A DNA stretch of 32,000 nt from Promethearchaeum syntrophicum (GTDB lineage: Archaea; Asgardarchaeota; Lokiarchaeia; Sigyniarchaeales; Promethearchaeaceae), in contig NZ_CP042905.2 of NCBI RefSeq assembly GCF_008000775.2, forward strand, positions 630,001 to 662,000. The letters run 5' to 3'. Below are positions 5,618-28,250 of the stretch, one piece after another. The position numbers were made by a program, and so were the translations under genes. Numbering within the stretch: position 1 is the stretch's first letter; every line of letters starts with the position of its first letter. The notes under the pieces are model-generated. The model did no database searches. It was not told where the DNA came from and was given only the letters and a program-made list of their open reading frames with translations.

Positions 5618-6178
5618 ATGAATGTAAAAGACGCAATTGAAAATAGAAGAGCTTATCGATCTTTAGCTGAGATTAAAATAACTGAAGAATTAATCAATGA
5701 TTTGGGGACTGCTGCGCAATTAATGCCGAGTTGTTTTAATAAGCAACCTTGGCGATTTGTATTCGTGTATAAAGATCCTCAACTCGAACGAATGAAAAAT
5801 GAGGTTTTAAGTGAAGGAAACTTATGGGCAAAGAAAGCCTCAATGATAATTGCTGTGTTTAGCAAAAAAGAATTTGATTGTGTAATTAAAGAACGGGAAT
5901 ATTATTTATACGATACAGGAATGGCGGTTGGATCATTGCTTCTAAGAGCAACTGAGATGGGGTTAATTGCTCATCCAATAGCTGGCTACAATCCAAGTAA
6001 AGCTAGAGAAGTTTTGAATATTCCTTCAGAATATAATGTGATCAATTTGATAATAATTGGTAAGAAAGATCCGATTATTCCTGATAATTTTACTTCTTTT
6101 CAATTAGAATCCGAAAAAAATCGCCCTCCAAGAAAACCACTTAAAGAATTTGTATTTCACAACACCTTTAGTTCTTAA
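5618..6178 (+). CDS. Nitroreductase-family protein
   Basis: 186 aa. It has NRRAYRSL near the N-terminus and KQPWRFVFV, with an overall nitroreductase-like layout. Its stop overlaps the stop of the convergent gene in TTAA at 6175..6178. Confidence 0.85.
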   Translation: MNVKDAIENRRAYRSLAEIKITEELINDLGTAAQLMPSCFNKQPWRFVFVYKDPQLERMKNEVLSEGNLWAKKASMIIAVFSKKEFDCVIKEREYYLYDTGMAVGSLLLRATEMGLIAHPIAGYNPSKAREVLNIPSEYNVINLIIIGKKDPIIPDNFTSFQLESEKNRPPRKPLKEFVFHNTFSS

Positions 6179-6531
6179 TCAACATTTTTTAATTTTTTTT
6201 TCATCAGAGTTTCATATTCATCAAAATCAAATTTTTCTACAAAATCTATGCCAACTTGAGCATCATCCTTAGAAAATTTAAGTGGAATATTATTTTGATG
6301 GCATATATCAATAAATCGCCACAAATTCACTCCTGCAATTTCACTTGCTTTCCCAAATGATACTTTCTCATTACGATATTCATTTATTGCAGTTTCTATT
6401 CGTATCTCTTCAATTGATTTGGAAAGTAAATATCTTATTAACGTACTTTTATCCATTTTAAGGATTTTTTGAAGATCTTCAATTTCTTTATTCAAATCTT
6501 TTGGAACTACAATTGATAATCGTTCACTCAT
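6175..6531 (-). CDS. UPF0175-family protein (putative antitoxin / DNA-binding partner of the PIN-like protein)
   Basis: 118 aa. Its core is VSFGKASEIAGVNLWRFIDICHQNNIPL, typical of UPF0175. It overlaps the upstream PIN-like gene by 8 nt. Confidence 0.7.
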   Translation of the reverse strand: MSERLSIVVPKDLNKEIEDLQKILKMDKSTLIRYLLSKSIEEIRIETAINEYRNEKVSFGKASEIAGVNLWRFIDICHQNNIPLKFSKDDAQVGIDFVEKFDFDEYETLMKKKLKNVD

Positions 6532-7018
6532 ATTTTTTTCCCTCGTTTAGATATTTTTCATATAATTCATGCGTAAACCATCCATTTGAAGAATATTTTA
6601 ATAAATTTCTTTTAAAATGATTAAAATTGATAGATTTTAGCTTAATCAAGAGTAAAAGCATATCTGCCGTTGAAATTGATGATATTTTTCGCTGTTCTGC
6701 AACTAGTCTTGCTTTTCGATCATCTAATATAACTAAAGATTTCAAAGTTTCTGAAAGTAAAATTGATTCATATTCTCCCAAATGTAAGTACTTTTTTAAT
6801 AAGGGATCTTGTTTCTTAATTGAATATTTTAAGATTCTATGCTCATTGTAATAGTTTTCTAGTAGTATAGCATCTGAATAACCATGTTTAATACCTTTTT
6901 CAATAACTTCACAATAAACAGCATCTGGTATAATTATATTTTTAAATTTCTTCAGAATGAAATCAATTTTTCCAATTTTTGTTAAATGGATCAATGGTGA
7001 TGAATCAAATATGATCAT
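6524..7018 (-). CDS. PIN-like nuclease-domain protein (DUF3368 type), putative toxin
   Basis: 164 aa. The N-terminus MIIFDSSPLIHLTKIGKIDFILKKFKNIIIPDAVYCEV matches the DUF3368 pattern (DsSpLI.LakIg.ldlL...iP.aVy.Ev). It also has LGEYESILL and ILDDRKAR acidic motifs. Confidence 0.7.
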   Translation of the reverse strand: MIIFDSSPLIHLTKIGKIDFILKKFKNIIIPDAVYCEVIEKGIKHGYSDAILLENYYNEHRILKYSIKKQDPLLKKYLHLGEYESILLSETLKSLVILDDRKARLVAEQRKISSISTADMLLLLIKLKSINFNHFKRNLLKYSSNGWFTHELYEKYLNEGKKYE

Positions 7019-7072
7019 ATATGATATTATATGAAATATACATATTTAAATAAATATAAAAAATGATTAAAT

Positions 7073-8428
7073 CTATTCTTTTTTAGGCCAAACCTTTCTG
7101 AAAGCACCTTTCTTCATTCGACAGACAGGACATTCCTCTGGTGGTTCATCACCATAGTGTAAATGACCACATATTTTACAACGCCACACGGTTTGTTGTT
7201 CCATGCCCTTTCTTGCAGCTTCTTTTACATCTTTTGCCCGTAATCTTGGTAAATCTTCCATTTTTGGCATAATTGGTTGAAAACCACCCTTCATAAGATA
7301 TTTTAGAACTATCATTCTTTGAACTTGATTTGTTCCTTCGTAGATCTGTAATAATCTGATATCTCTTAGAAGTTTCTCTACAGGGAAGTATTTCGTATAA
7401 CCGTATCCCCCCAAAATCTGTAATGCATCGTTTGCGACTTCAAAAGCTGCTTCAGTTGTATAAAATTTCGTCATAGATGCCCATAAAGTGCAATCACGCC
7501 CTTGATCGGCTTCCCAAGCGGAGCGCCAGATCATTAAGCGCGAAGTTTCAACTTTCTGGAACATTTCTGCAATTTTGAATTGAATGCCTTGAAAAGCCCC
7601 AATAGGTTGACCGAATGCTTTCCGATTCATAGCATGTTGCATGGCAAATTCCATAGCAGATCGTGCCGCACCAACAGCAAAAGCTCCGATCATTGGACGT
7701 GTGTGTGAAAAAACATTCATAGCTAAACCAAATCCTTCCCCGCCTTCTCTTCCCAGAACATTTTCAGCGGGGACTCTCACATTATCAAACTTAAGTGCCA
7801 CTGTGTTTGAAGTTCGTTGACCCATTTTCGGGATGTGATCAACAACTGAAACTCCATCCCAATCTGTTTCAATTACCACTCCTACAATTCCTTTGTGTCT
7901 AAGTTTTCGATCCACTGTAGCAAAAATTGTAGCATAATCAGCAAAACCCCCATTTGTAACCCAATATTTTGTTCCATTTAGAATGTAATCTTTCCCATCA
8001 GGTGTCGCTTTACATCGCATTCCTGCCACATCCGAGCCCATTCCAGTCTCTGATGTAGCGAAGCTAATCAGTTTAAAATTTTTAATTATATCCGTTAGAT
8101 ATTTTTCCTTAGCGATTTCATTAGTTGATAAAATCAGAGGTTCTTGTCCTAACCCATTATCAAAAATAGATGTTGCTAATCCAGGACCACAAGAAGCAAA
8201 TTCTTCAACCGCAATGGATGCATCTAACATTCCATGTCCTTGACCACCATATTTCTTAGGAATGCCTAAATTCATTAAGCCTTCTTTATATGCACGTTCT
8301 AATACATAGAGAGGCATTTCATCCATTTCATCAAAATACCATGCTACAGGTAAGATTTCGCGATGAGCAAATTCACGACTTTTCATTTGTAATGCTAATT
8401 GCTCATCTGTTAGTGTAAAATCAATCAT
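7073..8428 (-). CDS. Acyl-CoA dehydrogenase fused to a C-terminal rubredoxin/rubrerythrin-type Cys4 domain
   Basis: 451 aa. The ACAD body includes GSDVAGMRCKA, YWVTNGG and the catalytic-base region IYEGTNQVQRMIV. The C-terminal extension of about 70 aa contains WRCKICGHLHYGDEPPEECPVCRMKKGAF (C417, C420, C433, C436). Confidence 0.9.
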   Translation of the reverse strand: MIDFTLTDEQLALQMKSREFAHREILPVAWYFDEMDEMPLYVLERAYKEGLMNLGIPKKYGGQGHGMLDASIAVEEFASCGPGLATSIFDNGLGQEPLILSTNEIAKEKYLTDIIKNFKLISFATSETGMGSDVAGMRCKATPDGKDYILNGTKYWVTNGGFADYATIFATVDRKLRHKGIVGVVIETDWDGVSVVDHIPKMGQRTSNTVALKFDNVRVPAENVLGREGGEGFGLAMNVFSHTRPMIGAFAVGAARSAMEFAMQHAMNRKAFGQPIGAFQGIQFKIAEMFQKVETSRLMIWRSAWEADQGRDCTLWASMTKFYTTEAAFEVANDALQILGGYGYTKYFPVEKLLRDIRLLQIYEGTNQVQRMIVLKYLMKGGFQPIMPKMEDLPRLRAKDVKEAARKGMEQQTVWRCKICGHLHYGDEPPEECPVCRMKKGAFRKVWPKKE

Positions 8429-11477: not shown

Positions 11478-12263
11478 TTATAATGTACTGATGTTTGCAA
11501 ATTCTATAAAGAATCCTAATAGATATGCCAACCACCAACAGCCAAGGGTTGTATATCCGGTTAATTTTGCTAATCTTCGCATTCCAGATGTCCCGAATAA
11601 CGCGCTAGCAAAACCAAATGTTAAACCTACTCCCCCACAAATAATGTGTAAGGCGTGGATCCACCCAGAATAACCTTTCATTATATCTTGGGTTAAAGTG
11701 AATAACAATATCACGTTCAAAAGTGTGATAATCCAAGCACCACCTGCACTATAACCGTGGTATATACTATATTTGGGTTCGTCATAGATAACAAGGAGCG
11801 TTCCAATTGTGACCAATATTAATGCTGGAAGCCCTAAAGTTGAACCGAGGTGAAGACTATCATACTCAACTGTTCCACCAATCCAAATGAAAATAGAAAT
11901 AGTGATCATGAGTATATAGAGAATGGCTAGAAATGTAACGAATATACTTCTGATTGAGGGTTTTTTTAGTTTTTCAGATAATAAAACTGCAATAATAGTT
12001 ATTCCCAGAATTCCAATAGAATTCACAAATAACCAGATTTCAAGATCATATATTGCGACAGTAGTAACTTCGATTATTCCAATCACAAGCAATGTTGTGA
12101 GCATCGTTATTAATAGAGTTACTAATGTAATCAATACACCTTTCTTCTCATGCTTTTTGAAATAGTCTAAGAATAAAATCGTCCCTAATAAAATTGACAT
12201 AATTCCAATTGTTAAGATTATTTGGGCGATTCTAATCGTTTCTGATGATGTTATATTAACCAT
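11478..12263 (-). CDS. Polytopic membrane protein (about 8 TM); possible heme-copper oxidase subunit III-like component
   Basis: 261 aa and almost entirely hydrophobic. The motif GWIH203ALH206IICGG resembles GFHGLHVIIGS of COX3. It occupies the gene position after the subunit-I-like gene. The function call is weak. Confidence 0.6.
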   Translation of the reverse strand: MVNITSSETIRIAQIILTIGIMSILLGTILFLDYFKKHEKKGVLITLVTLLITMLTTLLVIGIIEVTTVAIYDLEIWLFVNSIGILGITIIAVLLSEKLKKPSIRSIFVTFLAILYILMITISIFIWIGGTVEYDSLHLGSTLGLPALILVTIGTLLVIYDEPKYSIYHGYSAGGAWIITLLNVILLFTLTQDIMKGYSGWIHALHIICGGVGLTFGFASALFGTSGMRRLAKLTGYTTLGCWWLAYLLGFFIEFANISTL

Positions 12264-12280: not shown

Positions 12281-13780
12281 TTATTTCTCCTTCAATAATT
12301 TGAGATCATGTCTATGTGCATGTAAGATTACGTATATTGCGAAAATAAACCCAAGTATCATAATCCAAACACCTACAAAAGTTAAAATCATAGTTGGCAT
12401 CTTATCTGTCGTTGGTTTTCTCATCATGTAAGCATTAGCAAAAGTAAATGCCCACGTACCTCCAATAGATAATAACCATGCAGCAATAGAGCTAGATCGA
12501 GTTGTTTCAGGTTGGAAATGTTTAATGGCTATTAAAATTACTAGCACCGCAAGCAACACAGCAAGTACATGCCAATGTCCAACATTAAAGTCATATTCTA
12601 CATCAACATACTCATGCGTTCTAAATATATGTCGTGTGCGCAAACCAACACTGATCCCACAGATTGTAACAACTATTTGAGCATAGAGATAAATCCAATA
12701 CAGTGCAAATCTAGCTGGATCTGCAAACATGCCTTTAATTTTATTTCCAAGTGATGTTGCGGTATAGTTTTCTCCTAAATGTTCTTTTGATATTTCCATC
12801 AATCCATTTATAGAGAGAGCTATAGTACATAATATTAAAATTCCTGCACCCACCCAGATTAAGTAATGATTTAACACCCAAGCACCATAGGAGATTGTGA
12901 TGATACCAATTGGACATAAAAATAGCATAATGTGATAGATTGTTCCCTTGATTTTACTTATTTTATATCCCATCATTGTAATCATCGCACCTGTCAAAGA
13001 AAGTTGTATGTGAAGATGAGATACAATAAATTCTTCCGGATGATCATGAATTAAGACTTTAACTACTTCCTCCGCGAAAAATGCATCTTGGTTTGGTCGA
13101 TTCAATACCCATATTGAATTAGTAAAAACTTCCATAGCAGCTAAGGCACCATATACAATTGACACAAGAACACAAAATGCTAAAAGCACCATTGAATAAT
13201 TTTCCAAATCTAATCCATAGAATAGAGCTCCATCTGTGGCTTCCTTAGGATCCGGGAATTTATTCGGTACTGGCCATGCCGCGATTATAAATATAACTCC
13301 TCCTAGAAAGACTAAAAACAACCCAAAGTAAAAAAACTCATGTAAAAACCTAATTCGAGTATAGGCAAAAAGTAGTCCACAGATCCCAGAGATAAAAGAC
13401 CCAGTTACCAAGGTTACTTTCAAGCTTGGTACATACTTTTCTCGAATTTCAAAGAATTCAAAACACCAAAAGGTAGTAGCAGCCACAAAAGGTGTTGCGA
13501 TAGAATGGTATATCATAACGATTCGAGCAGATCTTCCCATTAAATCATCATTATAGATATCAAATAGTGGTTCTCCCCCCCAAATAAAGGACATAGGTTC
13601 GGAAAACGTAAGGAGGAAAAGTACTTCGCAAACTAACAAAATAATCAAGCTGATATGGATTTTATTATAGTTAAATTTCGACTTTTCCTCTTTTTCATGG
13701 GTTTCCATTGTAAGCTCTGCAGTTCCTATTGGAGGAATGTTTTTTTCTTCTATTTTCAATTTCATTTCACTTTTATCCAT
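12281..13780 (-). CDS. 12-TM membrane protein; candidate highly divergent heme-copper oxidase superfamily subunit I-like protein
   Basis: 499 aa with 12 predicted TM helices. H92 is in TM2, HDH247PEEF is at TM6, N304-H305 is in TM7, H389-E390 follows, and GH402WH404VL is in TM10. Order and spacing parallel bovine COX1 H61, GH240PEVY, H290-H291, H368-D369 and AH376FH378YV. I am confident it is a CDS; the family call is tentative. Confidence 0.55.
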   Translation of the reverse strand: MDKSEMKLKIEEKNIPPIGTAELTMETHEKEEKSKFNYNKIHISLIILLVCEVLFLLTFSEPMSFIWGGEPLFDIYNDDLMGRSARIVMIYHSIATPFVAATTFWCFEFFEIREKYVPSLKVTLVTGSFISGICGLLFAYTRIRFLHEFFYFGLFLVFLGGVIFIIAAWPVPNKFPDPKEATDGALFYGLDLENYSMVLLAFCVLVSIVYGALAAMEVFTNSIWVLNRPNQDAFFAEEVVKVLIHDHPEEFIVSHLHIQLSLTGAMITMMGYKISKIKGTIYHIMLFLCPIGIITISYGAWVLNHYLIWVGAGILILCTIALSINGLMEISKEHLGENYTATSLGNKIKGMFADPARFALYWIYLYAQIVVTICGISVGLRTRHIFRTHEYVDVEYDFNVGHWHVLAVLLAVLVILIAIKHFQPETTRSSSIAAWLLSIGGTWAFTFANAYMMRKPTTDKMPTMILTFVGVWIMILGFIFAIYVILHAHRHDLKLLKEK

Positions 13781-14425
13781 TTAGTGTTTCACTTCTTCTT
13801 TTTTTTTCCCAAATATCCGCCATAATGCTAGTGGTGTCATAACTACAATTGTACAAACGAGTGTTGGTACCACAGCTTCAATCATGGAATGTTCTGTATC
13901 ATACCAAGGATGACCAGAAATAAGTGAATGTGTATAAGCACCGCCCAAACTACAAAATGCGGTGACTGCGATTAATGTCCATTCAGGAGCGTCTATGCTG
14001 TAATTATAATGATTTATTAAATCATCTGCTTGATTGGTATAGTGTCTGTCCTCCACTAAAGTTTTATTAAGTGTGCCAATATCTACTACATCAAAAACAT
14101 ATGCTTCTCGGATTGCATAGTCTCCGAATATTTCATGTTCTTCTACCTCATCGCTCACCAATAGATATTTATCTTGTGTAGTAAAATTTTCTATAAGCTC
14201 TTTAGGTAATTGATAGAATTCTATTGTAACTCTCTCTATGTAATGATATTCGGAATCTGATACTCCATGAGTGATATAAACACTCAATATTTTGTCTTGA
14301 TTATAATATTTGAGGTCTATAAATCTTGGATCATGGGCACTTGCATTTATGCTACCAGTAGTAAAACCAACCATAAATATTAGAGATATTAACAAAGTCC
14401 AAGCTCTCTTTCTATTATTACTCAT
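13781..14425 (-). CDS. Extracytoplasmic His/Cys-containing protein with an N-terminal signal/anchor and a C-terminal TM helix; occupies the subunit-II position
   Basis: 214 aa. The N-terminal hydrophobic segment is WTLLISLIFMVGFTTGSINASA and the C-terminal TM is AVVPTLVCTIVVMTPLALW. Candidate ligands are H31, H53, H61, C158, H166 and H172. Its stop codon directly abuts the ATG of the next gene. Confidence 0.6.
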   Translation of the reverse strand: MSNNRKRAWTLLISLIFMVGFTTGSINASAHDPRFIDLKYYNQDKILSVYITHGVSDSEYHYIERVTIEFYQLPKELIENFTTQDKYLLVSDEVEEHEIFGDYAIREAYVFDVVDIGTLNKTLVEDRHYTNQADDLINHYNYSIDAPEWTLIAVTAFCSLGGAYTHSLISGHPWYDTEHSMIEAVVPTLVCTIVVMTPLALWRIFGKKKEEVKH

Positions 14426-14460
14426 TTTCTTTTCCTATTTAAATTTTAAATCTGAGCAAG

Positions 14461-14487
14461 AGCTAAAGAATCAATCTAACTTTAGCT
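14461..14487. promoter_or_regulatory. Perfect 8-bp inverted repeat (AGCTAAAG-N11-CTTTAGCT) in the leader/promoter of the membrane-complex operon
   Basis: Read directly from the sequence. It lies 36-62 nt upstream of the ATG at 14425 (minus strand). On the plus strand a T-run follows it. Confidence 0.3.
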
Positions 14488-15290
14488 TTTTTACTCTCGT
14501 TCTTAATTTTGTTTTAATCATATATATAACTATATTTAAAATTATCCTTTTGACAATCTTCTCTTCAATTTTGATTTTTACTTCTCAATCTTCTTTTAAA
14601 TAGATCATACTTTATAGATAATTATTTTTAAAAATGCTCGATTCCAATTGCAGTGATAGTTATGGTTTCTTGGTATCAACAATTATAAAATATACACTGT
14701 GGTTATTATAATTACAATTATAATGTTTATTCGATCTTAAAAAGAGGAAATAATATTATTTAAGTTTCGCTCTCTATTTAAACATGATATTTTCTGGTCT
14801 TATTTTCAGATACTTGAATCAAACCAGTGAACAGAAAATTAAATTTAAGAAAAATTTTATGAGATTCAGATATTATATATTACATATTAATCTCTTTTTA
14901 ACCTACCTAGTATTTTTATATAAAGAAAATCGAGTGTGTAGATCATTTATAAAAAAAATTTAATAAACTCTCTATCTAACTCATGTATGATTTAGTTAAA
15001 TATTTATTAAACTAAGCCGCTCTTTCGAAGATAAATTTGAATATTGCTTTCGTTCTTATTAAATCTAATTGCTTTTATATAATGTTAACATGATGGATGA
15101 CCTTCTTTAAAATAAAGCAAAAAAAAGTAATGTAAAGAACTTCAAAAAAAAAATATAATAAAAAAAACATTATCTTCAAAATTGATCTATGTATTGATTT
15201 TTAGGAATGCTAAATTATAAAAAAAGTTGCTAATCCTACCGATTTTTGTCGAATTAGATTACCTTTGAAGTGCATAAAAAAAAATGGAAA

Positions 15291-16517
15291 TTACAACTTT
15301 TTAGGTATCTTTTTGATTTCCTGAGCAAATTTTTTGCCCATTTCAAAACCTTTATCTAAATCCTCATCCTTTGGCCCACCTTGAAATTCTAAAGGCTCTA
15401 AACAATCCCATTTCAATTTCTCAGTCATCTGATCGAAATGTTTCTGGGCTCCACCTGACCATCCGAAACTTCCAAAACGAAATACTTTCTTATTCCAAAC
15501 ATGCTTTTTAGCAAGCAAAGATATTAAATCTTGCATAGGGGGGTACATTTTATATTCATAAGTTGGCATTCCAAAAACCAGTCCTGCAGATTCCCATGCA
15601 GATGCTAAGATATAGGATTTATCATCCTCAGGCACCCGAAAAATTTTAACATGAACACCCTCTGATGCAATACCTTTCAATACCGAACGAAGCATTTTTT
15701 CTGTATTGGAATACATTGAGCCCCAAATGACAGTAATTTTTGGTTCAGCATAATCATTCATGTAATTTGCATAAGTTTTATATCTGTTTACTATTGTTCT
15801 AGGATTTCCTCTCCAGACTAATCCATGGGATGGTGCGATAATTTTGATATCTAAAGGTCCGAGGGCGTCAATAGCCTTTAGAACGAAGTTCGAGAAAGGT
15901 CCTACAATATTTGCATAATATCTTAAGGATTCATTTTCGTAAAAAAGATGATCTTCTTCGCTGTTTTCATCATCAAAAAGAGATCCCTTTAATGCACCAA
16001 ATGAACCGAAAGCATCGCATGGAAATAAAGTTTCTGTACTGCTCTCAAAAGTTGCCATCGTTTCTGGCCAATGAACATTTGGAATATCATAAAAAGTTAG
16101 AACCTTACCTTGACCTAAATCAAGTGTATCTCCTGAACTAACCGCTTTAACATTTTCTGTAATTCCATAAAAGGCTTCAACTAGAGGTTTTCCCTTTGTT
16201 GAAGTAATAATCTCTGCTTTTCCGGATAATTCATTAAACCCTCTTAAATCTCCTGTGTGATCCGGTTCTAAGTGATTAACAATAAAATAATCAACATCCT
16301 TGATACTTATTCCAATAGAATTCAATTCGTCAATTAAGTTAGATTGAGCTCCACCCCAATCACGAACTAAATCAATAATCGCAATTTTATCTCCTCTAAC
16401 TACGTATGAATTAATAGTTACCCCATTTGGGATTGGCCATAAACCTTCAAATAGATCATTTGTCGAAATATTTGCACCAATCCAATAAATTCCATCTGTA
16501 ATTTCAGTAGCTTTCAT
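15291..16517 (-). CDS. fprA: Flavodiiron protein (FprA-type A-type flavoprotein; O2/NO reductase)
   Basis: 408 aa. It has a metallo-beta-lactamase-like domain with the diiron motif HLEPDHTG, followed by a flavodoxin-like domain (KITVIWGSMYSNTEKM). Confidence 0.9.
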   Translation of the reverse strand: MKATEITDGIYWIGANISTNDLFEGLWPIPNGVTINSYVVRGDKIAIIDLVRDWGGAQSNLIDELNSIGISIKDVDYFIVNHLEPDHTGDLRGFNELSGKAEIITSTKGKPLVEAFYGITENVKAVSSGDTLDLGQGKVLTFYDIPNVHWPETMATFESSTETLFPCDAFGSFGALKGSLFDDENSEEDHLFYENESLRYYANIVGPFSNFVLKAIDALGPLDIKIIAPSHGLVWRGNPRTIVNRYKTYANYMNDYAEPKITVIWGSMYSNTEKMLRSVLKGIASEGVHVKIFRVPEDDKSYILASAWESAGLVFGMPTYEYKMYPPMQDLISLLAKKHVWNKKVFRFGSFGWSGGAQKHFDQMTEKLKWDCLEPLEFQGGPKDEDLDKGFEMGKKFAQEIKKIPKKL

Positions 16518-16553
16518 TTTGATTCACATAACAATTTTTAATATATAAAAAAT

Positions 16554-16892
16554 TTACAAAGGACGCCGTTCTGGTATTCCTTGAGTTTCTTTTCCACTAT
16601 CATAAAAATCTTGTGTTAAATATAAACCACAATAACAATGTCCATACTCTTCTTGATCGGGAATGCAATAATCACATGGACAAATAATATCTTTATCTTC
16701 TTCTTTAACCCCATCCCCATCTCGACAAGGACAGCTGTAATAACCATATCTATTGTAATTAGCATTTAAACCATCAATTATCGAATCCAAAAACTCAACA
16801 TCACGCGTTAATTTCCATGCGTTTTTTTTTGCAACCATTTCTACAAATTTTCGTGTATCTTCAATATTTTTTTCTTTTTTTGTTTTGGACAT
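16554..16892 (-). CDS. Ferredoxin:thioredoxin reductase catalytic subunit-like protein
   Basis: 112 aa. It has the CPC...CPC...CHC-type pattern: YYSCPCRDGDG...IICPCDYCIPDQEEYGHCYCGLYL. Confidence 0.85.
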   Translation of the reverse strand: MSKTKKEKNIEDTRKFVEMVAKKNAWKLTRDVEFLDSIIDGLNANYNRYGYYSCPCRDGDGVKEEDKDIICPCDYCIPDQEEYGHCYCGLYLTQDFYDSGKETQGIPERRPL

Positions 16893-16960
16893 ATTTAATT
16901 AAATCTCCTTTTAATTCATAAAAAAAAAGTAGTCACTTGTTGGGATATGAATTAAATTTA

Positions 16961-17260
16961 TCATAGACCACAAATTTCTTCCCAATCACTTTTTACAAAC
17001 CCAACTATTGCTTTTTCATCATTACAGACTAAAAATGGAAATGCGACTCTTCTATTAAATTTCTTTTTAAGACTTTCTTTTATTTTTGATTTCTTTTCAA
17101 TATCTATTTTATCAACATAAACATATCTAAATTTAACTTCATTTTCCCTAAGAAAATTCAATCCTCTACGACAAAATCCGCATGTGGATAAAGCAAATAC
17201 TGTTAATTCATTTGTAGCAATTTTTCCGTCTTCTTCGATAAAGTCAATATCTTCGTACAT
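16961..17260 (-). CDS. Glutaredoxin/thioredoxin-like small redox protein
   Basis: 99 aa. It has a CxxC active site in a Grx-like context: VFALSTCGFCRRGLNFLRENEVKFRYVYVD. Confidence 0.8.
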   Translation of the reverse strand: MYEDIDFIEEDGKIATNELTVFALSTCGFCRRGLNFLRENEVKFRYVYVDKIDIEKKSKIKESLKKKFNRRVAFPFLVCNDEKAIVGFVKSDWEEICGL

Positions 17261-17391
17261 AGTTAAATTCAGCCTCGAATAGATAAAAAAATAACGTTAT
17301 GAAATCTTATTCAAAATAGAAAAATTCATTATTAAAAATAAGTAATATTGTTTATCAAATCATATACATTAGAAAAGAGTGTTGATTAAAA

Positions 17392-18582
17392 ATGAAGATA
17401 TTAATTATCGGAAATGGAATTGCTGGACAGACAGTTGCGGAAGAAATTCGAAAAAACAATTCAGACTATGAAATAAATATCATTACAAAAGAACCCTATC
17501 TTTATTATTCACGTATTTTCCTCCCGAGCTATCTAATAGGAGAAAAATCTTTAGATAAACTCATCTTACATTCAATTGAATGGTATAAAAATCGAAATAT
17601 TTCAGTTGAGTTAAATAAGCAAATTGACCAGATTGATCGGGTTAACAAAAAATTACATGTTCTTGAAGATGATAATTGGATTAACTATGATAAATTAGTT
17701 ATTGCATCAGGAAGTAATGCAAGAATACTCCATTTTGGAAATCCAAATCTAAAAGGTGTGTTCAGTTTGCGAAATGTCGCCGATGCAGATACAATTCGGA
17801 ATTATATTAATAAGAATAATGTAAAAGATGTACTAGTTATAGGGGGTGGGTTATTAGGGATAGAAATTGGTTTTAATTTACGAGATCTTCAATTAAATGT
17901 TACTATATGTGAAATTGCACCATATCTACTTCCACGGCAGTTAGATCGAGGGACTTCAAAACTCCTTCAAAAGTATCTGGAATCTAAAAATTTGGAGATA
18001 TTATGTGATGTTGCTGTAGAGAAAATATTAGGTGATAAAAGGGTTACAGGGATTAAACTGAAAAATGGTATGGAAAGGAAATTTGATATGATAATTCAGC
18101 AGATGGGAATCATTCCCGAGATATCTCTGGCTCAAAAAAGTGATATTCAAGCTGAAAAAGGCATTATCGTTAATGAATACATGCAAACAAACGATCCCGA
18201 TATTTATGCTGTTGGAGATTGTATTCAATTTAATGGAAGAATCTGGGGGATTATTCCTGCTAGTAGAGAGCAGAGTAAATTAGCTGCGAAACATATTTTA
18301 AAATTAAATCCTGAAAAATATCAAGGGACTTTCTGGAATACACGTTTAAAAATAGCTGGAATAAATTTAACTTGTTTAGGTTCTCCTGAAGAAGAAGATA
18401 AAGAAGAAACTAAGCTTATTGAATCAGTAGATGAAGAAAAATTTCTTTGTAGAAAAGTCCGGATTGAAGATAATCAAATTAAAAGTGCAATTTTGTTAGG
18501 ACCTGGAAAAGATAATTTCTTCGTGAAAAATTTAGGGAAAGAAGTGGATTTCGATGAAGTAAAAAAGAAAGTCTATGAATAA
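17392..18582 (+). CDS. NAD(P)H/FAD-dependent pyridine nucleotide-disulfide-family oxidoreductase (rubredoxin-reductase / NirB-N-terminal-like)
   Basis: 396 aa. It has two Rossmann motifs (KILIIGNGIAGQTVA; VLVIGGGLLGIEIGF) and AVGDC near the FAD-binding C-terminal motif. Confidence 0.85.
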   Translation: MKILIIGNGIAGQTVAEEIRKNNSDYEINIITKEPYLYYSRIFLPSYLIGEKSLDKLILHSIEWYKNRNISVELNKQIDQIDRVNKKLHVLEDDNWINYDKLVIASGSNARILHFGNPNLKGVFSLRNVADADTIRNYINKNNVKDVLVIGGGLLGIEIGFNLRDLQLNVTICEIAPYLLPRQLDRGTSKLLQKYLESKNLEILCDVAVEKILGDKRVTGIKLKNGMERKFDMIIQQMGIIPEISLAQKSDIQAEKGIIVNEYMQTNDPDIYAVGDCIQFNGRIWGIIPASREQSKLAAKHILKLNPEKYQGTFWNTRLKIAGINLTCLGSPEEEDKEETKLIESVDEEKFLCRKVRIEDNQIKSAILLGPGKDNFFVKNLGKEVDFDEVKKKVYE

Positions 18583-19154: not shown

Positions 19155-20108
19155 CTATTCTAAATTTTCTTCTTTTTTGAAGATTTCAATAGCTAATTTT
19201 TCAAACATCTCATCCACGTTTTCTCCTGTCTTTGCTGAGCATTCAATAAACAGAAATCCATGTTCGATTGCATAATTTAAACCCTCTTGTCTTGAAACCT
19301 TTCGTTCTAAGTCAGATTTATTTCCAACTAATAAAACTGGAACTTTGCCTAAATTTTCTTCTAAATCTGCAACCCACTTATCTAAGTGTTTAAACGATAA
19401 AGCATTGTTTATATCGTAACAGATTAAAGCTCCTTTGGCATCCTTAAAATATATACCTCGAATTTTGTCATATTGATCTTGACCTGCCGCGTCCCATACA
19501 TTCATTCGCGCTGTAAAGCGATATGTTCCTGAAAATAATAAATCTGTGCTCAAATAAGATGTTTTTATTTCTTTTGTGCCGAAATCCACACCCAAAGTTG
19601 TTTTAAGATCTTTCTTGAAATAATTATCTGTAAATCGAACTTTGATTGCTGTTTTTCCAACTGCTGTATCTCCGATCTCTATTATTTTGAAGGAGTAATT
19701 GCTTCTTAGAAGAGTTTTTGCTTCGTTTATTGCCCAACTTTCAATATTTTCCCCTGTTATTAGAGTCGGTGAAATATCACTCATTTCCGTAAGTTTTAAT
19801 ATAAAGCCATTGACATAAGTATCATATTCCATATTTTCTAAAGCTTTTTCATTAAAAGTTTCAATCTTACCAGAACAAGGTGCATTTAAAGTGGTTACTC
19901 CTTGTTCAGAAGCAATTGCTACAAACGGTAAGCCTACTTTAATTTCATTTTCAACTAGTAAACTTATTTCTGTAGGATTTTTTAAGAAAGCGTATCCTAT
20001 CTGGTCTAAGCCTATTATTTTCTTCTGTAAATTCATATAAACATGTTGATTTTTGCTATAATATAATTCATTCGGTAGATCATAACGACCATCAGCTATA
20101 GTTACCAT
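19155..20108 (-). CDS. Fusion protein: N-terminal GcvH-like (lipoyl-domain-fold) domain plus C-terminal Rab/Ras-like small GTPase
   Basis: All five G motifs are present: G1 GDTAVGKT, G2 TTLGVDF, G3 WDAAGQ, G4 GNKSD, G5 ECSAKTG. Residues 1-125 align by hand to E. coli GcvH (PNELYYSKNQHVYM vs PAELKYSKEHEWL; FVAIASEQGVTTLNAPCSGKIETFN vs [25 protein letters not shown]). Confidence 0.85.
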   Translation of the reverse strand: MVTIADGRYDLPNELYYSKNQHVYMNLQKKIIGLDQIGYAFLKNPTEISLLVENEIKVGLPFVAIASEQGVTTLNAPCSGKIETFNEKALENMEYDTYVNGFILKLTEMSDISPTLITGENIESWAINEAKTLLRSNYSFKIIEIGDTAVGKTAIKVRFTDNYFKKDLKTTLGVDFGTKEIKTSYLSTDLLFSGTYRFTARMNVWDAAGQDQYDKIRGIYFKDAKGALICYDINNALSFKHLDKWVADLEENLGKVPVLLVGNKSDLERKVSRQEGLNYAIEHGFLFIECSAKTGENVDEMFEKLAIEIFKKEENLE

Positions 20109-20155: not shown

Positions 20156-20596
20156 TCATTTCACTTGAATCCGATCCATGATTTTATCCCAGAATTCATT
20201 TTTAAATTCGGGATTAACTAATATAACTTTTTTCATCTTTACCTTTTCAATTTCAGGAATTTTATTGCCGGTTCTAAGAGGTAAATTGTTTCTATTTAGA
20301 ATATGTCCATCCAATTTCATGGAAATTGCATCAAATGGGCATAATGTCAGACATACACCACAAAAAACACATTTCAATGGATCTGGGAAAAATGGAACCC
20401 GTTCTTTTCTGGGCACTTTTTTTCCTTTAGGAATTTCTGGCTTGAATAATGCATTTTTTGGGCAAGCTTTTACGCATTGATAACATGAGGTGCATTTGTT
20501 AAGATCAAACATCAAGTCTGTTGTACGATTCATATATTCTATTTTTGTATTTCTAACCGAAAAATTTATAGATTCTTCCACAATTGGCCATTTCAT
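20156..20596 (-). CDS. 2x[4Fe-4S] ferredoxin-domain protein, the last gene of hdr/mvhD operon 1
   Basis: 146 aa. It has CTSCYQCVKACPKNA and CVFCGVCLTLCPFDA. Its start overlaps the mvhD stop by 1 nt. Confidence 0.8.
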   Translation of the reverse strand: MKWPIVEESINFSVRNTKIEYMNRTTDLMFDLNKCTSCYQCVKACPKNALFKPEIPKGKKVPRKERVPFFPDPLKCVFCGVCLTLCPFDAISMKLDGHILNRNNLPLRTGNKIPEIEKVKMKKVILVNPEFKNEFWDKIMDRIQVK

Positions 20597-21066
20597 TAAA
20601 TAACAACCTCCTCAAGTTTTTTAAATTCCTTTGCAGCTATTTTTTTACGGGAATTTGGTCCAATTTTCTTCAATTCAGATACAAATTCTCGAATATGTTC
20701 GGTAAATTCAGCTCCTTCACTAGCGCTAATATGCCAGAGCTTAAATCGTTTTGGATCAATCCCATATTGTTCCATAAACGTATTCATAATAGAAAATCTT
20801 CTTACTGCTTTTTCATTCCCTTCTATATAATGACAATCTCCTAAATGACACGCCCCAATTATGACTCCATCAGCTCCATTTTTCAAAGCTTCTATTGCAT
20901 AACTGGGTTCCATTCTTCCAGAGCACATCAAACGAATTATTCTAACATCTGCAGGTCGTTGCATACGGCTTACACCAGCTTGATCACTTCCAGTATAAGT
21001 GCACCAGTTACAAGCAAAACAAACAATATACGGCTCGAAATCACTTTTTTCAATCATTTTAATCAC
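20596..21066 (-). CDS. mvhD: MvhD-type (methyl-viologen-reducing hydrogenase delta subunit family) [2Fe-2S] protein
   Basis: 156 aa. The diagnostic sequence is IVCFACNWCTYTGSDQAG...RIIRLMCSGRMEPSYAIEALKNGADGVIIGACHLGDCHY. Confidence 0.9.
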   Translation of the reverse strand: MIKMIEKSDFEPYIVCFACNWCTYTGSDQAGVSRMQRPADVRIIRLMCSGRMEPSYAIEALKNGADGVIIGACHLGDCHYIEGNEKAVRRFSIMNTFMEQYGIDPKRFKLWHISASEGAEFTEHIREFVSELKKIGPNSRKKIAAKEFKKLEEVVI

Positions 21067-21073
21067 TTAAATT

Positions 21074-23056
21074 TTAAATTTCTTTGATATAATTCTCCCA
21101 AGGTCTTAATGCCCTTACTTCACTTAAAATTTGATTGCGAGTGAAATGATTCTGTATAATTGCATTTGATGGGCAAGAGCTTACACATACACCACATCCT
21201 TTGCATTTTATTGCATTTATATCTGCAGTTTTCGTAGTTTCATCAAAACTTATTGCATCATATGGGCAAAGTTGGATACATGATCTGCATCCTGAACATA
21301 TTTCTGGTTGAACCATTGAATAATAAGGCTCAATTTCTACTTCACCTGAATACATGAAATTATCCGCACTGCTAGCTGCTGCTTTCGCCTGAGCTACTGA
21401 GTCAGGTATATCACGTGGCGCTTGGCAAGTACCTGCAATAAAAATTCCAGTTGAGAGTGAATCTACTGGTTTAAGCTTTGGGTGTGCTTCCATGAACATT
21501 CCATCTTCTGAACATTGAATACCGAAAAATCGACCTACTTCATCAGCATCTTTTCGAGCTTCAATGGCTGTTGATAAAATGAGCATATCAACTTCAACTT
21601 CATACTTTTCAGCAAGTAAAGTATCGCTTCCCCTTAAAATTAAGGATCCATCATTTTTTTCAAAAACATCTCCAATTCTACCCCGGATAAAATTAATTCC
21701 ATATTCTCTTGAAGCAATTTCATAAAATTCTTCATAACCTTTTCCAAATGCCCTCAAATCAATGTAAAATATAAAAACTTCTGAATCTGGATATTTCTCT
21801 TTAAATTGCCTTGCTTGTTTTACCGCATACATACAACACACTCGTGAACAATATTTATGAGTGCCTTCATGAAAATCACGTGAACCTACACACTGTAAAA
21901 ATGCAATTCGTTTTGGTGTTTTATGGTCTGAAGGTTTTATTACTTTACCTAATGTTGGACCTGTACTGGAAAGTAAACGTTCCATCTCGATAGCAATTAG
22001 TACATTTTTATATTTTTGATATCCGTAGCGATAAAGTTGGGAAGGATCAAAAATATCATTTCCTGTTGCAATAATTATCGAACCGACTTTTAAATCAATA
22101 ATTTCATCTTTTAAGCTAAAATCTATGGCATTTACTTCACACGCATCAACACAAAGCATACATTCAATGCATGATTTTATATCGATTGTATATTGTTCAG
22201 GAATTGCTTGAGGAAATGGAACATAGGCCGCACGTCTATAACCCATATTATAATCAAATTCGTTTGGAACAGTAACAGGACAAATTTCACCACAAGCTCC
22301 ACAGCCTGTGCATATGGAATGATTTATTCTTCGATTTTTTTTTCTTACCTTAACCTCAAAATTTCCTACATTTAGATCTACACTTTCTATTTCAGAATAC
22401 GTAAGTAGATCTATATTCGGGTTTCGTCCAACTTCTACCATCTTAGGAGTAGTAATACATGCAGAGCAGTCCATTGTTGGAAAAGTTTTATCAAGTTGCG
22501 CCATATGACCTCCTATTGAAGGAGTTCGCTCTACTAAATGAACTTTATATTTATTTGCGAGATCAAGGGCAGCAAACATTCCTGTAATTCCTGCTCCGAC
22601 AATTAAAGCTTCTTTAGTTACCTCTATTTTTTGTCTAATTAATGGTCTATCATTCGATACTTTTGCAACCGCCATTTTAATATGATCTTTTGCAATTTCC
22701 ATAGCGCCTTTATGATCCCTCATACTTACCCATGATGCATGTTCACGTATGTTTGCTTGTTCAAAAAAGAACTCATTAAAACTGTTTTCACGCATGACTC
22801 TTCGATATGTTTCCTCATGCATGAGTGGACTACAAGCAGCTACTACAACACGATCAACTTTACCTGATTTTAAATCCTCTGCTATCAAATCCTGACCTGC
22901 ATTGCTACACATGAATTTGAAGTTTTTTACTGAAACAACATTAGGTATATGTTTTGAATATTCCGTTATTTCATCCATGTCAATAACATCTGCAATATTT
23001 TTACCACAATGGCAAATATATACTGCAACTTTTGGTTTAGGTCTTTCTAAACTCAT
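21074..23056 (-). CDS. hdrA: Heterodisulfide reductase subunit A (full-length, bifurcating type with ferredoxin-like inserts)
   Basis: 660 aa. The N-terminus has VAVYICHCGKNIA, the FAD motif is ALIVGAGITGMFAALDLA, and the protein has several CxxCxxCxxxCP motifs. There is a 4-nt ATGA overlap with hdrB. Confidence 0.92.
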   Translation of the reverse strand: MSLERPKPKVAVYICHCGKNIADVIDMDEITEYSKHIPNVVSVKNFKFMCSNAGQDLIAEDLKSGKVDRVVVAACSPLMHEETYRRVMRENSFNEFFFEQANIREHASWVSMRDHKGAMEIAKDHIKMAVAKVSNDRPLIRQKIEVTKEALIVGAGITGMFAALDLANKYKVHLVERTPSIGGHMAQLDKTFPTMDCSACITTPKMVEVGRNPNIDLLTYSEIESVDLNVGNFEVKVRKKNRRINHSICTGCGACGEICPVTVPNEFDYNMGYRRAAYVPFPQAIPEQYTIDIKSCIECMLCVDACEVNAIDFSLKDEIIDLKVGSIIIATGNDIFDPSQLYRYGYQKYKNVLIAIEMERLLSSTGPTLGKVIKPSDHKTPKRIAFLQCVGSRDFHEGTHKYCSRVCCMYAVKQARQFKEKYPDSEVFIFYIDLRAFGKGYEEFYEIASREYGINFIRGRIGDVFEKNDGSLILRGSDTLLAEKYEVEVDMLILSTAIEARKDADEVGRFFGIQCSEDGMFMEAHPKLKPVDSLSTGIFIAGTCQAPRDIPDSVAQAKAAASSADNFMYSGEVEIEPYYSMVQPEICSGCRSCIQLCPYDAISFDETTKTADINAIKCKGCGVCVSSCPSNAIIQNHFTRNQILSEVRALRPWENYIKEI

Positions 23057-24078
23057 ATGTTTTTACCTCCTGCAAAATCATCTAATGGAATATTTTCAAT
23101 TTTCTTCAGTAATTTATCGAACGGAACAAATGGTGATATTCCTTTCAATTCTTCAGGTTTTATCATCCCGAGGTCTTCAGGTTCAAATCCCATTGCTAAT
23201 CCTAAAAGTTGGGTAATATATATAACTGGAATTCTGAACTCTTCTTCTCCCTCATCTAATAATTTGGAAACTTCAATTTGTCCTAAATCAAACTGCAAAT
23301 GGCAAAATGGACAACACACTACAATGCAATCTACTCCAACTTTACGAATTTGTCGCAATTTCTCTAAAGTATATTGAAGACTATTATCTTTAAAACCAGT
23401 TCTTAACGATCCTCCTGCTCCACAGCACATTAATTTTTCTTGATAATCAATTGATTGACATCCGATTTTCTCAACAACCTCATCAAAAAATGTAGGATTA
23501 TCAGGATCTTGTCCAAAAAGCTGCGTGGTTGCTGGCTTAAGAATGTGACAACCATAATGAATAGCTGTTCGTAAATTAAGTGTTCTTTTAACTAATTTTT
23601 TTATTTTCTCCAATCCTATATCAAAATAAAGTACATCCATTACTTGACGCACATTAACCTTACCATCAAAATGAATATTTTTTTCTGCAAGAATATCATT
23701 GATTCTTTTATTAATTTCTGGATTTGATTTCATTTCATGTTCTACTTCGTGTAATGTGCCAAAACATCCATTGCACAGTGTCAATAATTCGGTTGTATTA
23801 TTATTTTGGGCGATTGTTAGATTTCGTGTCCCTAATGTAAGCCAAAGTGCTTTATCGACGGATCTAAACACTCCTGGTGCAGGACAGCATGTAGCACCAT
23901 TCATATCTATAAGCTCTATTCCCAGTTTGTTAAAAACAAAGCGAGATGCGCGTTCGATCATAGGATAACGATTTGGAATAACACACCCTAAATATAACGA
24001 ATATTTTAAATCTGATAGGGGTTTTTCAGTTAGTTCTTCCTTTGATTGCTCCCTATTTTGTTCTTTAATTTCTGTCAT
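23053..24078 (-). CDS. hdrB: Heterodisulfide reductase subunit B (two CCG domains)
   Basis: 341 aa. Motifs include YSLYLGCVIPNRYP, GATCCPAPG, LCNGCFG, LMCCGAGGS and CPFCHLQFD. Confidence 0.9.
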   Translation of the reverse strand: MTEIKEQNREQSKEELTEKPLSDLKYSLYLGCVIPNRYPMIERASRFVFNKLGIELIDMNGATCCPAPGVFRSVDKALWLTLGTRNLTIAQNNNTTELLTLCNGCFGTLHEVEHEMKSNPEINKRINDILAEKNIHFDGKVNVRQVMDVLYFDIGLEKIKKLVKRTLNLRTAIHYGCHILKPATTQLFGQDPDNPTFFDEVVEKIGCQSIDYQEKLMCCGAGGSLRTGFKDNSLQYTLEKLRQIRKVGVDCIVVCCPFCHLQFDLGQIEVSKLLDEGEEEFRIPVIYITQLLGLAMGFEPEDLGMIKPEELKGISPFVPFDKLLKKIENIPLDDFAGGKNI

Positions 24079-24119
24079 TAATTCTCATCTTCTCTTCATT
24101 TCAAAGGTTTTCAATTTTA

Positions 24120-24662
24120 TTAGCGATATGGGATACGTGCATTAAATTTAATTTTATCAAGTAAGGTAAAAAGCTCATCCAATGCTTCAGGAAACTTGTG
24201 AACAGTTGGAGGTATTTTATCTAATTTATGTAATTCTCGTAATTTTGCCCATTTTGAATCTGCTCCTCCCAGAGGAACTGCATGGCCCGTATTTGCTAAA
24301 TTCTTAATGACATTTTTCAAAGCATCTGGTAAATAGCCCTCCCTAACTGCCATATTCCTCAATTTTAAAATTACATTAGTAACTGGAATTGTTCTTGGGC
24401 AACGTTCATAACAATTAAAGCAAGTTGAACAATACCAGATATCTGGTTCTGAAAGAACTGAATGAACCCCTGCCAAGGCTTTTCTCATTATTTTTCTTGT
24501 TACTAAGGCTGTAAAACTACCACTGGGGCAAACTGATGTACACATTCCGCACTGAATACAACTACGAATCTTTTTCAAATCTTCATCAACAGAAAGTTCA
24601 TCTGAGTATTCAGAGCTATATTTTATTAATTTTGATTTATTTATCAATTCATTTTTCACCAA
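24120..24662 (-). CDS. hdrC: Heterodisulfide reductase subunit C
   Basis: 180 aa. Motifs are CIQCGMCTSVCPSG and CSTCFNCYERCPR. The start is TTG at 24662 or GTG at 24659. Confidence 0.9.
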   Translation of the reverse strand: MVKNELINKSKLIKYSSEYSDELSVDEDLKKIRSCIQCGMCTSVCPSGSFTALVTRKIMRKALAGVHSVLSEPDIWYCSTCFNCYERCPRTIPVTNVILKLRNMAVREGYLPDALKNVIKNLANTGHAVPLGGADSKWAKLRELHKLDKIPPTVHKFPEALDELFTLLDKIKFNARIPYR

Positions 24663-25793: not shown

Positions 25794-25808
25794 AATAAAA
25801 AGGAGATT

Positions 25809-26189: not shown

Positions 26190-26200
26190 GTGGAAAAAAA

Positions 26201-26527: not shown

Positions 26528-26597
26528 TTTTTTTTTTGAAATTAGATGTAGTGAGAACTGAAAAAAAACAAAAATAAAAACAAAAAGTGAAAAAAAT

Positions 26598-28247: not shown

Positions 28248-28250
28248 AAA

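Follow-up and report, generated by a model that had tools for sequence, protein, structure and literature searches.

In subunit I of the heme-copper oxidases (HCOs) the cofactors are held by histidines: in the E. coli bo3 oxidase subunit CyoB, H106 and H421 are heme b ligands, H419 is the heme o3 ligand and H284, H333 and H334 are CuB ligands, with Y288 as the cross-link Tyr. Published surveys of the Asgard archaea report HCOs and bd oxidases only in Heimdallarchaeia and describe Promethearchaeia as being without them. Current accounts of Asgard physiology and eukaryogenesis follow this distribution, treating Lokiarchaeia/Promethearchaeia as lacking terminal oxidases. Here we describe a 32,000-nucleotide stretch of the Candidatus Prometheoarchaeum syntrophicum MK-D1 chromosome (contig NZ_CP042905.2, positions 630,001 to 662,000; hereafter the window), and in particular a 499-aa membrane protein encoded within a five-gene operon. 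Its open reading frame (ORF) has an ATG start and is 100% identical to DSAG12_01126, which carries the database name 'hypothetical protein'. A literature search returned no description of the protein family, of DSAG12_01126 or of the adjacent DSAG12_01127. The initial annotation of this DNA had proposed a cryptic, divergent subunit I of the HCO/NorB superfamily. This proposal draws support from the fold, from profile-profile alignment, from the histidine positions and from synteny with heme O synthase, and not from any match to COX1. We consider the chances about evenly balanced that the 499-aa protein represents the core subunit in a very divergent, as yet unannotated branch of the HCO/nitric oxide (NO) reductase superfamily.

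Fold and conserved histidines of the 499-aa protein family

An AlphaFold2 model of the 499-aa protein, based on an alignment of 105 sequences, contains 12 long helices (mean pLDDT 89.1, pTM 0.88), in line with the 12 transmembrane (TM) helices first read from the ORF. When the model was compared to the PDB using Foldseek, nearly all of the top 25 ranks were occupied by HCO subunit I (prob 0.92-1.0, TMq 0.40-0.55). The best match is E. coli CyoB (6wti_A, E 4e-3, prob 1.0, TMq 0.55), and others include the Paracoccus and Rhodobacter aa3 enzymes and mitochondrial COX1. Other families with 12-14 TM helices (complex I antiporter-like subunits, MATE, MurJ and ACIII) gave TM values of 0.12-0.24. The predicted structure hence has a 12-TM core fold like that of HCO/NO reductase (NOR) subunit I, in which three four-helix arcs make up the core. 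An N-in topology is indicated by where the modelled helices begin and end and by the lysine-rich nature of both termini. In this orientation every conserved histidine would lie in the outer third of the membrane, at a depth equal to that of the HCO hemes and CuB, as would almost all of the conserved polar residues (S60, R83, R86, Y91, S93, E237, W301, R387 and E395). The only conserved residues predicted to face the cytoplasm are E193 and S207, and no equivalent of a D- or K-channel is evident from conservation and the model.

Conservation was assessed in 105 homologs, in 29 maximally diverse members and in about 140 full-length members. Seven histidines (H92, H147, H255, H257, H305, H402 and H404) are invariant among the 105 sequences, with R86, Y91, E237, W301, R387 and E395 among the further invariant residues. 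The diverse set leaves H92, H255, H402 and H404 invariant, with conservation of 90% or more at H257, H305 and E395. H257 and H305 are kept in all lineages but one, and H147 is missing only from the four most distant of the full-length members. By these alignments, Asgard archaea and Chloroflexota have six core histidines in common. The conserved residues are located on TM2 (R86, Y91 and H92), TM4 (H147), TM6 (H255 and H257, forming an H255-L-H257 motif) and TM7 (W301), at the start of TM8 (H305) and on TM10 (H402-W-H404).

The sequence strings from which the initial annotation had argued (H92, H245/H247, N304-H305, H389-E390 and H402-W-H404, with inter-histidine spacings of 155/58/97) are all present in the protein. 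Four of the five ligand histidines named there, H92, H305, H402 and H404, proved to be conserved. The fifth, H247, varies among Asgard orthologs and is absent from the distant clade, while the conserved H147 and H255-L-H257 had been overlooked. With H257 taken as the TM6 ligand the spacings become 165/48/97, compared to 178/50/85 in CyoB. Neither H389 nor E390, put forward as counterpart of the Mg/Mn site, is conserved.

A single lineage has replaced H257, W301 and H305 jointly by R, F and N, and has retained H92, H147, H255, H402 and H404. This divergent second copy of the 12-TM gene is found in the same Loki-type clusters as the standard copy (two placed examples are listed in Table 1; P0153 belongs to the lineage as well), upstream of the gene for a superoxide reductase (SOR)-like protein. 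The replacement of these three residues as a unit, with the other histidines kept, points to two separate sites, one CuB-like and one for hemes; the pattern thus suggests that H257, W301 and H305 belong to one site and the remaining histidines to another.

To compare the family with HCOs at the profile level, the 29-member alignment was aligned to one of 11 HCO sequences, of A and B types only, consisting of CyoB (100% identical to the annotated cyoB) and ten others from annotated plasmid records and loci. The six canonical ligand columns of the HCO alignment are as expected, except that H284 is opposite a misaligned Leu in three ba3-like sequences. In global mode hhalign aligned 454 columns co-linearly (prob 91.6%, E 1e-7, score 41.3). 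Reversal of either alignment gave scores of 3.5-4.8 and 20 column shuffles gave at most 3.3, hence the signal is specific to the HCO profile. Remote homology to this small A/B-type profile is therefore detectable by profile-profile comparison. The invariant H402-W-H404 motif of TM10 aligns exactly with CyoB H419 and H421, H257 with the CuB ligand H284, and W301/H305 with W331/H333, H333 being the first residue of the HH pair. The canonical CuB/FeB set of one TM6 His and a TM7 His-His pair was not found, and an extra invariant His (H255) is located in TM6. A CuB/FeB-like site, if present, would consequently be rearranged.

None of this similarity is apparent to sequence-family searches. The first check suggested in the initial annotation, a search for COX1 (PF00115), failed: the 499-aa protein matches neither this nor any other family of Pfam-A and NCBIfam at E<=10. 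No PDB chain sequence was matched by the protein (phmmer) or by the family profile (hmmsearch). The protein is unannotatable by sequence-family criteria. The same holds for ten divergent members with regard to Pfam, apart from the C-terminal domains fused to two of them. One of these (P0124, 785 aa) has an FGE-sulfatase domain joined to the 12-TM protein via an extra TM helix, and the other (P0258) has a C-terminal PD40/beta-propeller domain. A scan of one genome per GTDB species located 416 loci of the family. Asgard homologs (Loki/Promethearchaeota, Thor, Hermod, Hod and Heimdall) are 42-84% identical to the 499-aa protein. A more distant group, with 25-32% identity, comes mainly from Chloroflexota (Anaerolineae, Thermoflexia, Dehalococcoidia, Caldilineae and Chloroflexia) and a few other bacteria. 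When 1.84 billion cluster representatives were searched with the family profile, only 258 matches were returned, all belonging to the family's own group.

Heme O synthase linkage and operon partners

To survey the genes accompanying the 12-TM core, neighbour proteins were searched by tblastn in 82 loci of Asgard archaea and Chloroflexota/bacteria. A UbiA-family gene is found on the same strand within 5 kb at 57 of these loci, comprising 18 of 20 in the Asgard clade closest to the window (type-1), 9 of 16 of Heimdall type and 30 of 46 in bacteria. Slightly over half (13/25) of the UbiA-negative loci have less than 1.7 kb of downstream flank. The UbiA genes score 195-209 bits against the heme O synthase model TIGR01473, for which the trusted cutoff is 210.3. 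The best model for any other UbiA subfamily reaches about 50 bits, some 150 bits lower, and the NCBI name of these genes is protoheme IX farnesyltransferase. In type-1 operons, of five to six genes, the heme O synthase gene is usually located between the core gene and that of a 261-aa protein. Association with heme O synthase (CtaB/CyoE) at the operon level is thus observed, and this synteny is the strongest independent evidence for an HCO-like protein. The P. syntrophicum genome, where the initial annotation had suggested looking for such a gene, does contain a heme O synthase-like gene (P0340), located elsewhere on the 4.32-Mb chromosome and not adjacent to the operon. As the published surveys confine terminal oxidases to Heimdallarchaeia, the Loki-type heme O synthase has been left with no annotated client; the 12-TM family is the obvious candidate.

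The five window genes are arranged head to tail and are tightly packed (Table 1). The four partners of the core are present in 19-20 of 20 type-1 loci, and the operon is fixed in Loki-, Thor-, Hermod- and Hod-type genomes. The first gene, the stop codon of which directly adjoins the start of the 499-aa gene, encodes a 214-aa protein (DSAG12_01127; 19/20 type-1 loci). This protein combines a signal peptide with a beta-sandwich domain and a TM anchor at its C-terminus (AlphaFold2 pLDDT 82). Neither the protein nor its family has a Pfam match (Desulfoferrodoxin included) or a PDB sequence match. The top Foldseek match is a 1Fe superoxide reductase/neelaredoxin (4brj, E 6e-4, TMt 0.54), with many SOR entries among the matches. 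This fold match is weak, with generic Ig-like folds close behind in the ranking. Although H31, H53-G, H61-Y and C158 are conserved (as is H179), the C-x-x-H motif of SOR is missing; these residues represent a candidate mononuclear metal site. An N-terminal histidine brace was also considered for this protein and rejected, the first His after the signal peptide not being conserved across clades. The operon has no cupredoxin subunit II, as the 214-aa neighbour is SOR-like/Ig-like and is anchored at the C-terminus rather than the N-terminus.

The 261-aa protein (20/20 type-1 loci) has a conserved C-terminal core of four TM helices in which H138, H169, H203 and H206 are invariant, together with E162, N183, R229 and W243-W244. 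No Pfam, NCBIfam or PDB sequence match was found for the protein or its family. The invariant residues make it a candidate heme- or metal-binding subunit for electron entry. The GlcD-like protein (20/20) lacks a signal peptide and matches FAD_binding_4 (3e-30) and the NCBIfam glcD model (6e-26, far under the equivalog cutoff), and is presumed to be a cytoplasmic electron-input enzyme of the 2-hydroxyacid/D-lactate type. Its FAD-oxidase_C domain is barely detectable (E 0.16). The C-terminal tail of the protein (…YWRIQLLFFIAKWLYWVA) is hydrophobic/amphipathic and is conserved in the L004 homolog; it may serve as a membrane-docking element. The HdrD/GlcF-like protein (20/20), encoded by a gene with a 22-nt overlap with the upstream gene, combines a 4Fe-4S dicluster with two CCG domains (CCG x2 1.6e-32, Fer4_8 8e-14).

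In Heimdall and Chloroflexota genomes a heme O synthase gene flanks the core gene, often along with genes for a small six-TM protein, an FGE-sulfatase-fold lipoprotein and a CRP/FNR-type regulator. Some Heimdall loci consist of core and heme O synthase only (L023 and L029). The catalytic Cys pair of FGE appears absent from the lipoprotein on inspection of its sequence. The accessory membrane proteins of the bacterial clusters, b201 and b265, have no relationship to the 261-aa and 214-aa proteins of the Asgard operon. Genes for a canonical ba3-type oxidase are located immediately upstream of the family gene in four Chloroflexota loci; they encode a small subunit II and a subunit I of 542 aa with 23% identity to CyoB. 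The 12-TM family therefore coexists with ordinary HCOs and differs from them.

Table 1. Position of the operon genes, of other features in the window and of related genes in other loci (locus identifier before the colon).
Feature	Coordinates	Strand	Context or evidence
Leucine-rich-repeat protein, 620 aa	284-2146	+	window, unrelated to operon
PIN-domain/UPF0175 toxin-antitoxin-like pair	6175-7018	-	window, unrelated to operon
Acyl-CoA dehydrogenase fusion	7073-8428	-	downstream of operon
HdrD/GlcF-like Fe-S protein, 459 aa	8650..10029	-	operon; Pfam CCG x2, Fer4_8
GlcD-like PCMH-type FAD-binding dehydrogenase, 487 aa	10008..11471	-	operon; Pfam FAD_binding_4
261-aa small membrane protein	11478..12263	-	operon; ORF, conservation
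499-aa core (DSAG12_01126)	12281..13780	-	operon; ORF, conservation, AlphaFold2, Foldseek, hhalign
214-aa outer-face protein (DSAG12_01127)	13781..14425	-	operon; ORF, conservation, AlphaFold2 model
AT-rich intergenic gap, 865 bp, about 26% GC	14426..15290	.	upstream of five-gene operon
FprA-type flavodiiron protein	15291-16517	-	beside operon, upstream
Ferredoxin-thioredoxin reductase catalytic (beta) subunit	16554-16892	-	beside operon
Rubredoxin-reductase-like flavoprotein	17392-18582	+	beside operon
317-aa protein with GTPase domain	19155-20108	-	window
HdrC/HdrB/HdrA/MvhD-type gene set and 2x4Fe-4S ferredoxin gene	20156-24662	-	window
DsrE/DsrF-like genes	25428-27017		before second Hdr set
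Lrp/AsnC regulator	27116-27619		before second Hdr set
Second, separate HdrC/HdrB/HdrA/MvhD-type gene set	27636-31582	+	window
R/F/N paralog of 12-TM gene	L014:3250-4602		Loki-type cluster
R/F/N paralog of 12-TM gene	L018:2950-4269		Loki-type cluster
FGE-sulfatase-fold lipoprotein	L001:9473-10375		beside 12-TM gene; also homologs in bacterial clusters
ba3-like oxidase	L037:6267-7895		upstream of family gene
ba3-like oxidase	L048:3138-5201		upstream of family gene
ba3-like oxidase	L071:3265-5412		upstream of family gene
ba3-like oxidase	L057:~5639-7147		upstream of family gene

The gap upstream of the operon, presumed to be its promoter region, contains no convincing entry in the ORF list and no Rfam match; no Rfam family was found in the window as a whole. 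Beyond it lie genes which, judged by the proteins they encode, make up an oxidative-stress/redox-stress neighbourhood (15291-18582). Several Chloroflexota loci (L039, L051 and L067) likewise have an FprA homolog close to the family gene. On the other side of the operon, after a 221-bp gap and on the same strand, lies a gene for an acyl-CoA dehydrogenase with a rubredoxin-like (rubrerythrin-type) zinc/iron ribbon fused at its C-terminus. Further features of the window include two Hdr gene sets and a 317-aa protein with a C-terminal Ras/Roc small-GTPase domain and a weakly glycine-cleavage-H-like N-terminal region; its domain content marks the latter as an Asgard-type eukaryotic-signature GTPase in an unusual fusion.

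Proposed mechanism and rival explanations

Around the observed fold similarity, profile similarity, histidine conservation and synteny, we infer cofactors, an electron path and a substrate. The 12-helix HCO-type scaffold would bind two hemes close to its outer face; these would be heme b and/or heme O, with the linked heme O synthase as the source of heme O. H92 on TM2 and H404 on TM10 would ligate a low-spin heme and H402 on TM10 the second heme, with R86 and R387 placed to hold the heme propionates. H257 on TM6 and H305 at the TM7/8 junction, together with W301, would form a rearranged CuB/FeB-like non-heme metal site, to which H255 or E395 may add. In Prometheoarchaeum and most non-Heimdall Asgard archaea, the GlcD-like flavoprotein would oxidise a 2-hydroxyacid in the cytoplasm and pass electrons to the HdrD-like Fe-S/CCG protein, from there to the small four-His membrane subunit and finally to the HCO-like core, with no quinone taking part. 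At the outer side, the core and the SOR-like outer subunit would together reduce O2, NO or a reactive oxygen species. Since the conserved polar residues, with few exceptions, are located on the outer side and no proton channel towards the cytoplasm is conserved, the enzyme is probably non-pumping and cNOR-like, an O2/NO-type reductase fed directly by a cytoplasmic dehydrogenase. Its role would be oxygen or reactive-species scavenging rather than energy-yielding respiration. The CRP/FNR regulators and, in four loci, the ba3-type oxidase that flank the bacterial homologs provide, like the genes beside the window operon, a redox-stress context in favour of the HCO-like reading.

Several observations weigh against an HCO-like core. 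The Foldseek E-values are weak (4e-3 or worse) with a root-mean-square deviation of 8-9 A, indicating a common architecture and no close kinship. The searches of Pfam COX1, NCBIfam and PDB sequences are all without a match, and the profile search of 1.84 billion representatives provided no sequence bridge to canonical HCOs, with a family size (258 members) far below HCO numbers. H92, although invariant and in the outer third of TM2, is 7 residues off CyoB H106. The third CuB ligand H334 is opposite the non-conserved Y306, and the cross-link Tyr Y288 is opposite Ser/Ala. The 12-TM family thus has neither a cross-linked Tyr nor D/K channels, and NORs likewise lack both. In local mode hhalign gives an alternative register that pairs H147/H255/H257 with H333/H419/H421. 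The residue mapping is ambiguous because the fold has an internal three-fold repeat and H-x-H motifs occur on both TM6 and TM10, so that the assignment of individual ligands is provisional. The i/i+2 pair H255/H257 could belong to a third or bis-His heme and not to a binuclear centre. Finally, both the window and its closest relative (L020) have no adjacent heme O synthase gene.

The most substantial alternative, which we nevertheless consider unlikely, is that of a membrane cytochrome which depends on heme O but has no catalytic binuclear centre. It would only relay electrons laterally to an outer-face partner, through two or three hemes with bis-His ligation (for example H92-H404, H402-H257 and H255-H147). 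Chemistry such as the reduction of superoxide or peroxide would then occur at the partner, SOR-like in Asgard archaea and an FGE-sulfatase-fold lipoprotein in Chloroflexota. The two i/i+2 His pairs and H147 do fit a pseudo-threefold repeat, local hhalign maps TM4-8 onto HCO TM7-12, and both the Tyr cross-link residue and the third canonical CuB His are missing. An outer-face partner is also common, being SOR-like in 19/20 type-1 loci and of FGE fold in bacteria, where it is even fused to the core in P0124. In contrast, H257, W301 and H305 co-vary as a unit of their own and align to CuB ligands. Heimdall-type loci often combine core and heme O synthase with no outer partner (L023), which suggests that the core is self-sufficient. 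Furthermore, the 214-aa protein resembles SOR only weakly, as judged by the E-value, the closeness of Ig-like folds in the ranking and the missing C-x-x-H. A function in heme O handling, as heme-modifying enzyme (an analogue of heme A synthase), chaperone/insertase or exporter, would agree with heme O synthase being the most conserved partner over all clades, with the two-gene modules of L023 and L029, and with the accessory-like position of the gene directly after a canonical ba3-type operon in four Chloroflexota loci. We regard this as distinctly unlikely: Loki-, Thor- and Hermod-type genomes reportedly lack canonical HCOs that would need a modified heme, the fold and His pattern are those of an oxidase subunit and not of the 8-TM heme A synthase, and the flavoprotein/HdrD module linked in 20/20 type-1 loci is a better fit to a redox terminal enzyme.

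That the protein binds no heme at all, and is a His-rich transporter or Cu/Fe permease with a convergent or misassigned fold, the UbiA enzyme making some other prenylated product, seems more improbable still. The absence of sequence-family matches, the statistically weak structure matches and UbiA scores just under the heme O synthase trusted cutoff speak for it. Against this stand the reversed and shuffled controls, which show the HCO profile signal to be specific, the exact H-x-H correspondence in TM10, TM values below 0.25 for transporter folds, and UbiA genes that favour heme O synthase models over other subfamilies by about 150 bits and carry a matching NCBI name. The reading of the initial annotation, namely an HCO with Asn for a CuB His (N304) and Phe for the cross-linked Tyr (F251 in HPEEF, likened to HPEVY), as has been discussed for putative NO-dismutase-type relatives of qNor, is highly improbable. 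N304-H305 and H247-PEEF are indeed present in the window sequence, and N304 is conserved in the closest Asgard clade. However, N304 is not conserved beyond this type-1 clade, and H247 and F251 vary even among Asgard orthologs. hhalign pairs H305 with the first His of HH, places N304 opposite a gap and has H257, not H247, at the TM6 ligand position, so the supposed His to Asn substitution is at no ligand position and the qNor analogy falls with it. Both H247/HPEEF as the CuB/Tyr motif and N304 as a ligand substitution were accordingly rejected.

Implications and comparison with known systems

The full proposal goes further than an HCO-like core: an unrecognised heme-O-dependent, HCO-derived and quinone-independent terminal reductase, wired to a 2-hydroxyacid dehydrogenase/HdrD module and capped by an SOR-like subunit, in most non-Heimdall Asgard archaea including P. 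syntrophicum. We put this forward tentatively, as a possibility about which doubt outweighs confidence. If true, HCO-type reduction of O2, NO or reactive oxygen species would be a widespread trait of the archaeal lineage leading to eukaryotes and possibly an ancestral one, and lineages held to be strict anaerobes devoid of terminal oxidases may have an unrecognised one. The family would form a deep new branch of the HCO superfamily common to Asgard archaea and Chloroflexota. Such a branch, invisible to sequence searches, would bear on the evolution of O2 and NO reductases. A known superfamily would gain a member with an unprecedented subunit set, the distribution of which matters for the oxygen metabolism of the archaeal ancestors of eukaryotes. 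Direct wiring from dehydrogenase to oxidase without a quinone would represent an unusual respiratory architecture. For P. syntrophicum, the otherwise orphan heme O synthase would gain its client, and a testable route to oxygen or NO tolerance would be available in a cultured organism.

Compared to HCO subunit I (CyoB 6WTI, Paracoccus CtaD 1AR1 and ba3 CbaA), the 499-aa protein has a 12-TM core of similar length, with CyoB as its best structural match, and resembles it further in the co-linear profile alignment and in the linkage to heme O synthase. A TM10 H-x-H, a TM2 His, a TM6 His and a TM7 W-x(n)-H are found in both, all on the outer side. The two differ in that the 12-TM family has no sequence-level family match and lacks a cross-link Tyr and conserved D/K-channel residues. 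Furthermore, HCO subunit I has one TM6 His and two on TM7, whereas the 12-TM family has H-x-H on TM6 and a single His at TM7/8. In place of cupredoxin subunit II and subunit III, the window operon encodes an SOR-like protein, a four-His membrane protein and the GlcD/HdrD module. NorB (cNOR/qNOR), compared by its known features, likewise has no cytoplasmic proton channels and no cross-link Tyr, and has conserved Glu residues near the outer-side active-site region, as the 12-TM family has E237 and E395; qNOR furthermore provides a precedent for a core working without subunit II. In contrast to the 12-TM family, NorB is recognised by COX1-type profiles, and its FeB ligands (H+E on TM6 and HH on TM7) form an arrangement that the family does not reproduce.

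For the outer-face partner, 1Fe SOR (neelaredoxin) is the best fold match, and the residue order His, H-G-x6-H-Y-(I/V), Cys of the 214-aa protein recalls the Fe(His)4Cys ligand order. The 214-aa protein differs in being secreted and membrane-anchored where SORs are cytoplasmic, in a His spacing of x7 rather than x5, and in the missing C-x-x-H and Pfam Desulfoferrodoxin match. On the cytoplasmic side, the operon is similar to HdrDE/DsrMK modules in placing a CCG-domain Fe-S protein beside a small His-bearing membrane subunit, and to the 2-hydroxyacid dehydrogenases GlcDEF/LdhAB in pairing a GlcD-type flavoprotein with a GlcF/HdrD-type protein. The 261-aa membrane partner is, however, unrelated in sequence to HdrE, DsrM and NarI, and the module is coupled to an HCO-like protein, whereas the known systems are coupled to quinone, methanophenazine or heterodisulfide.

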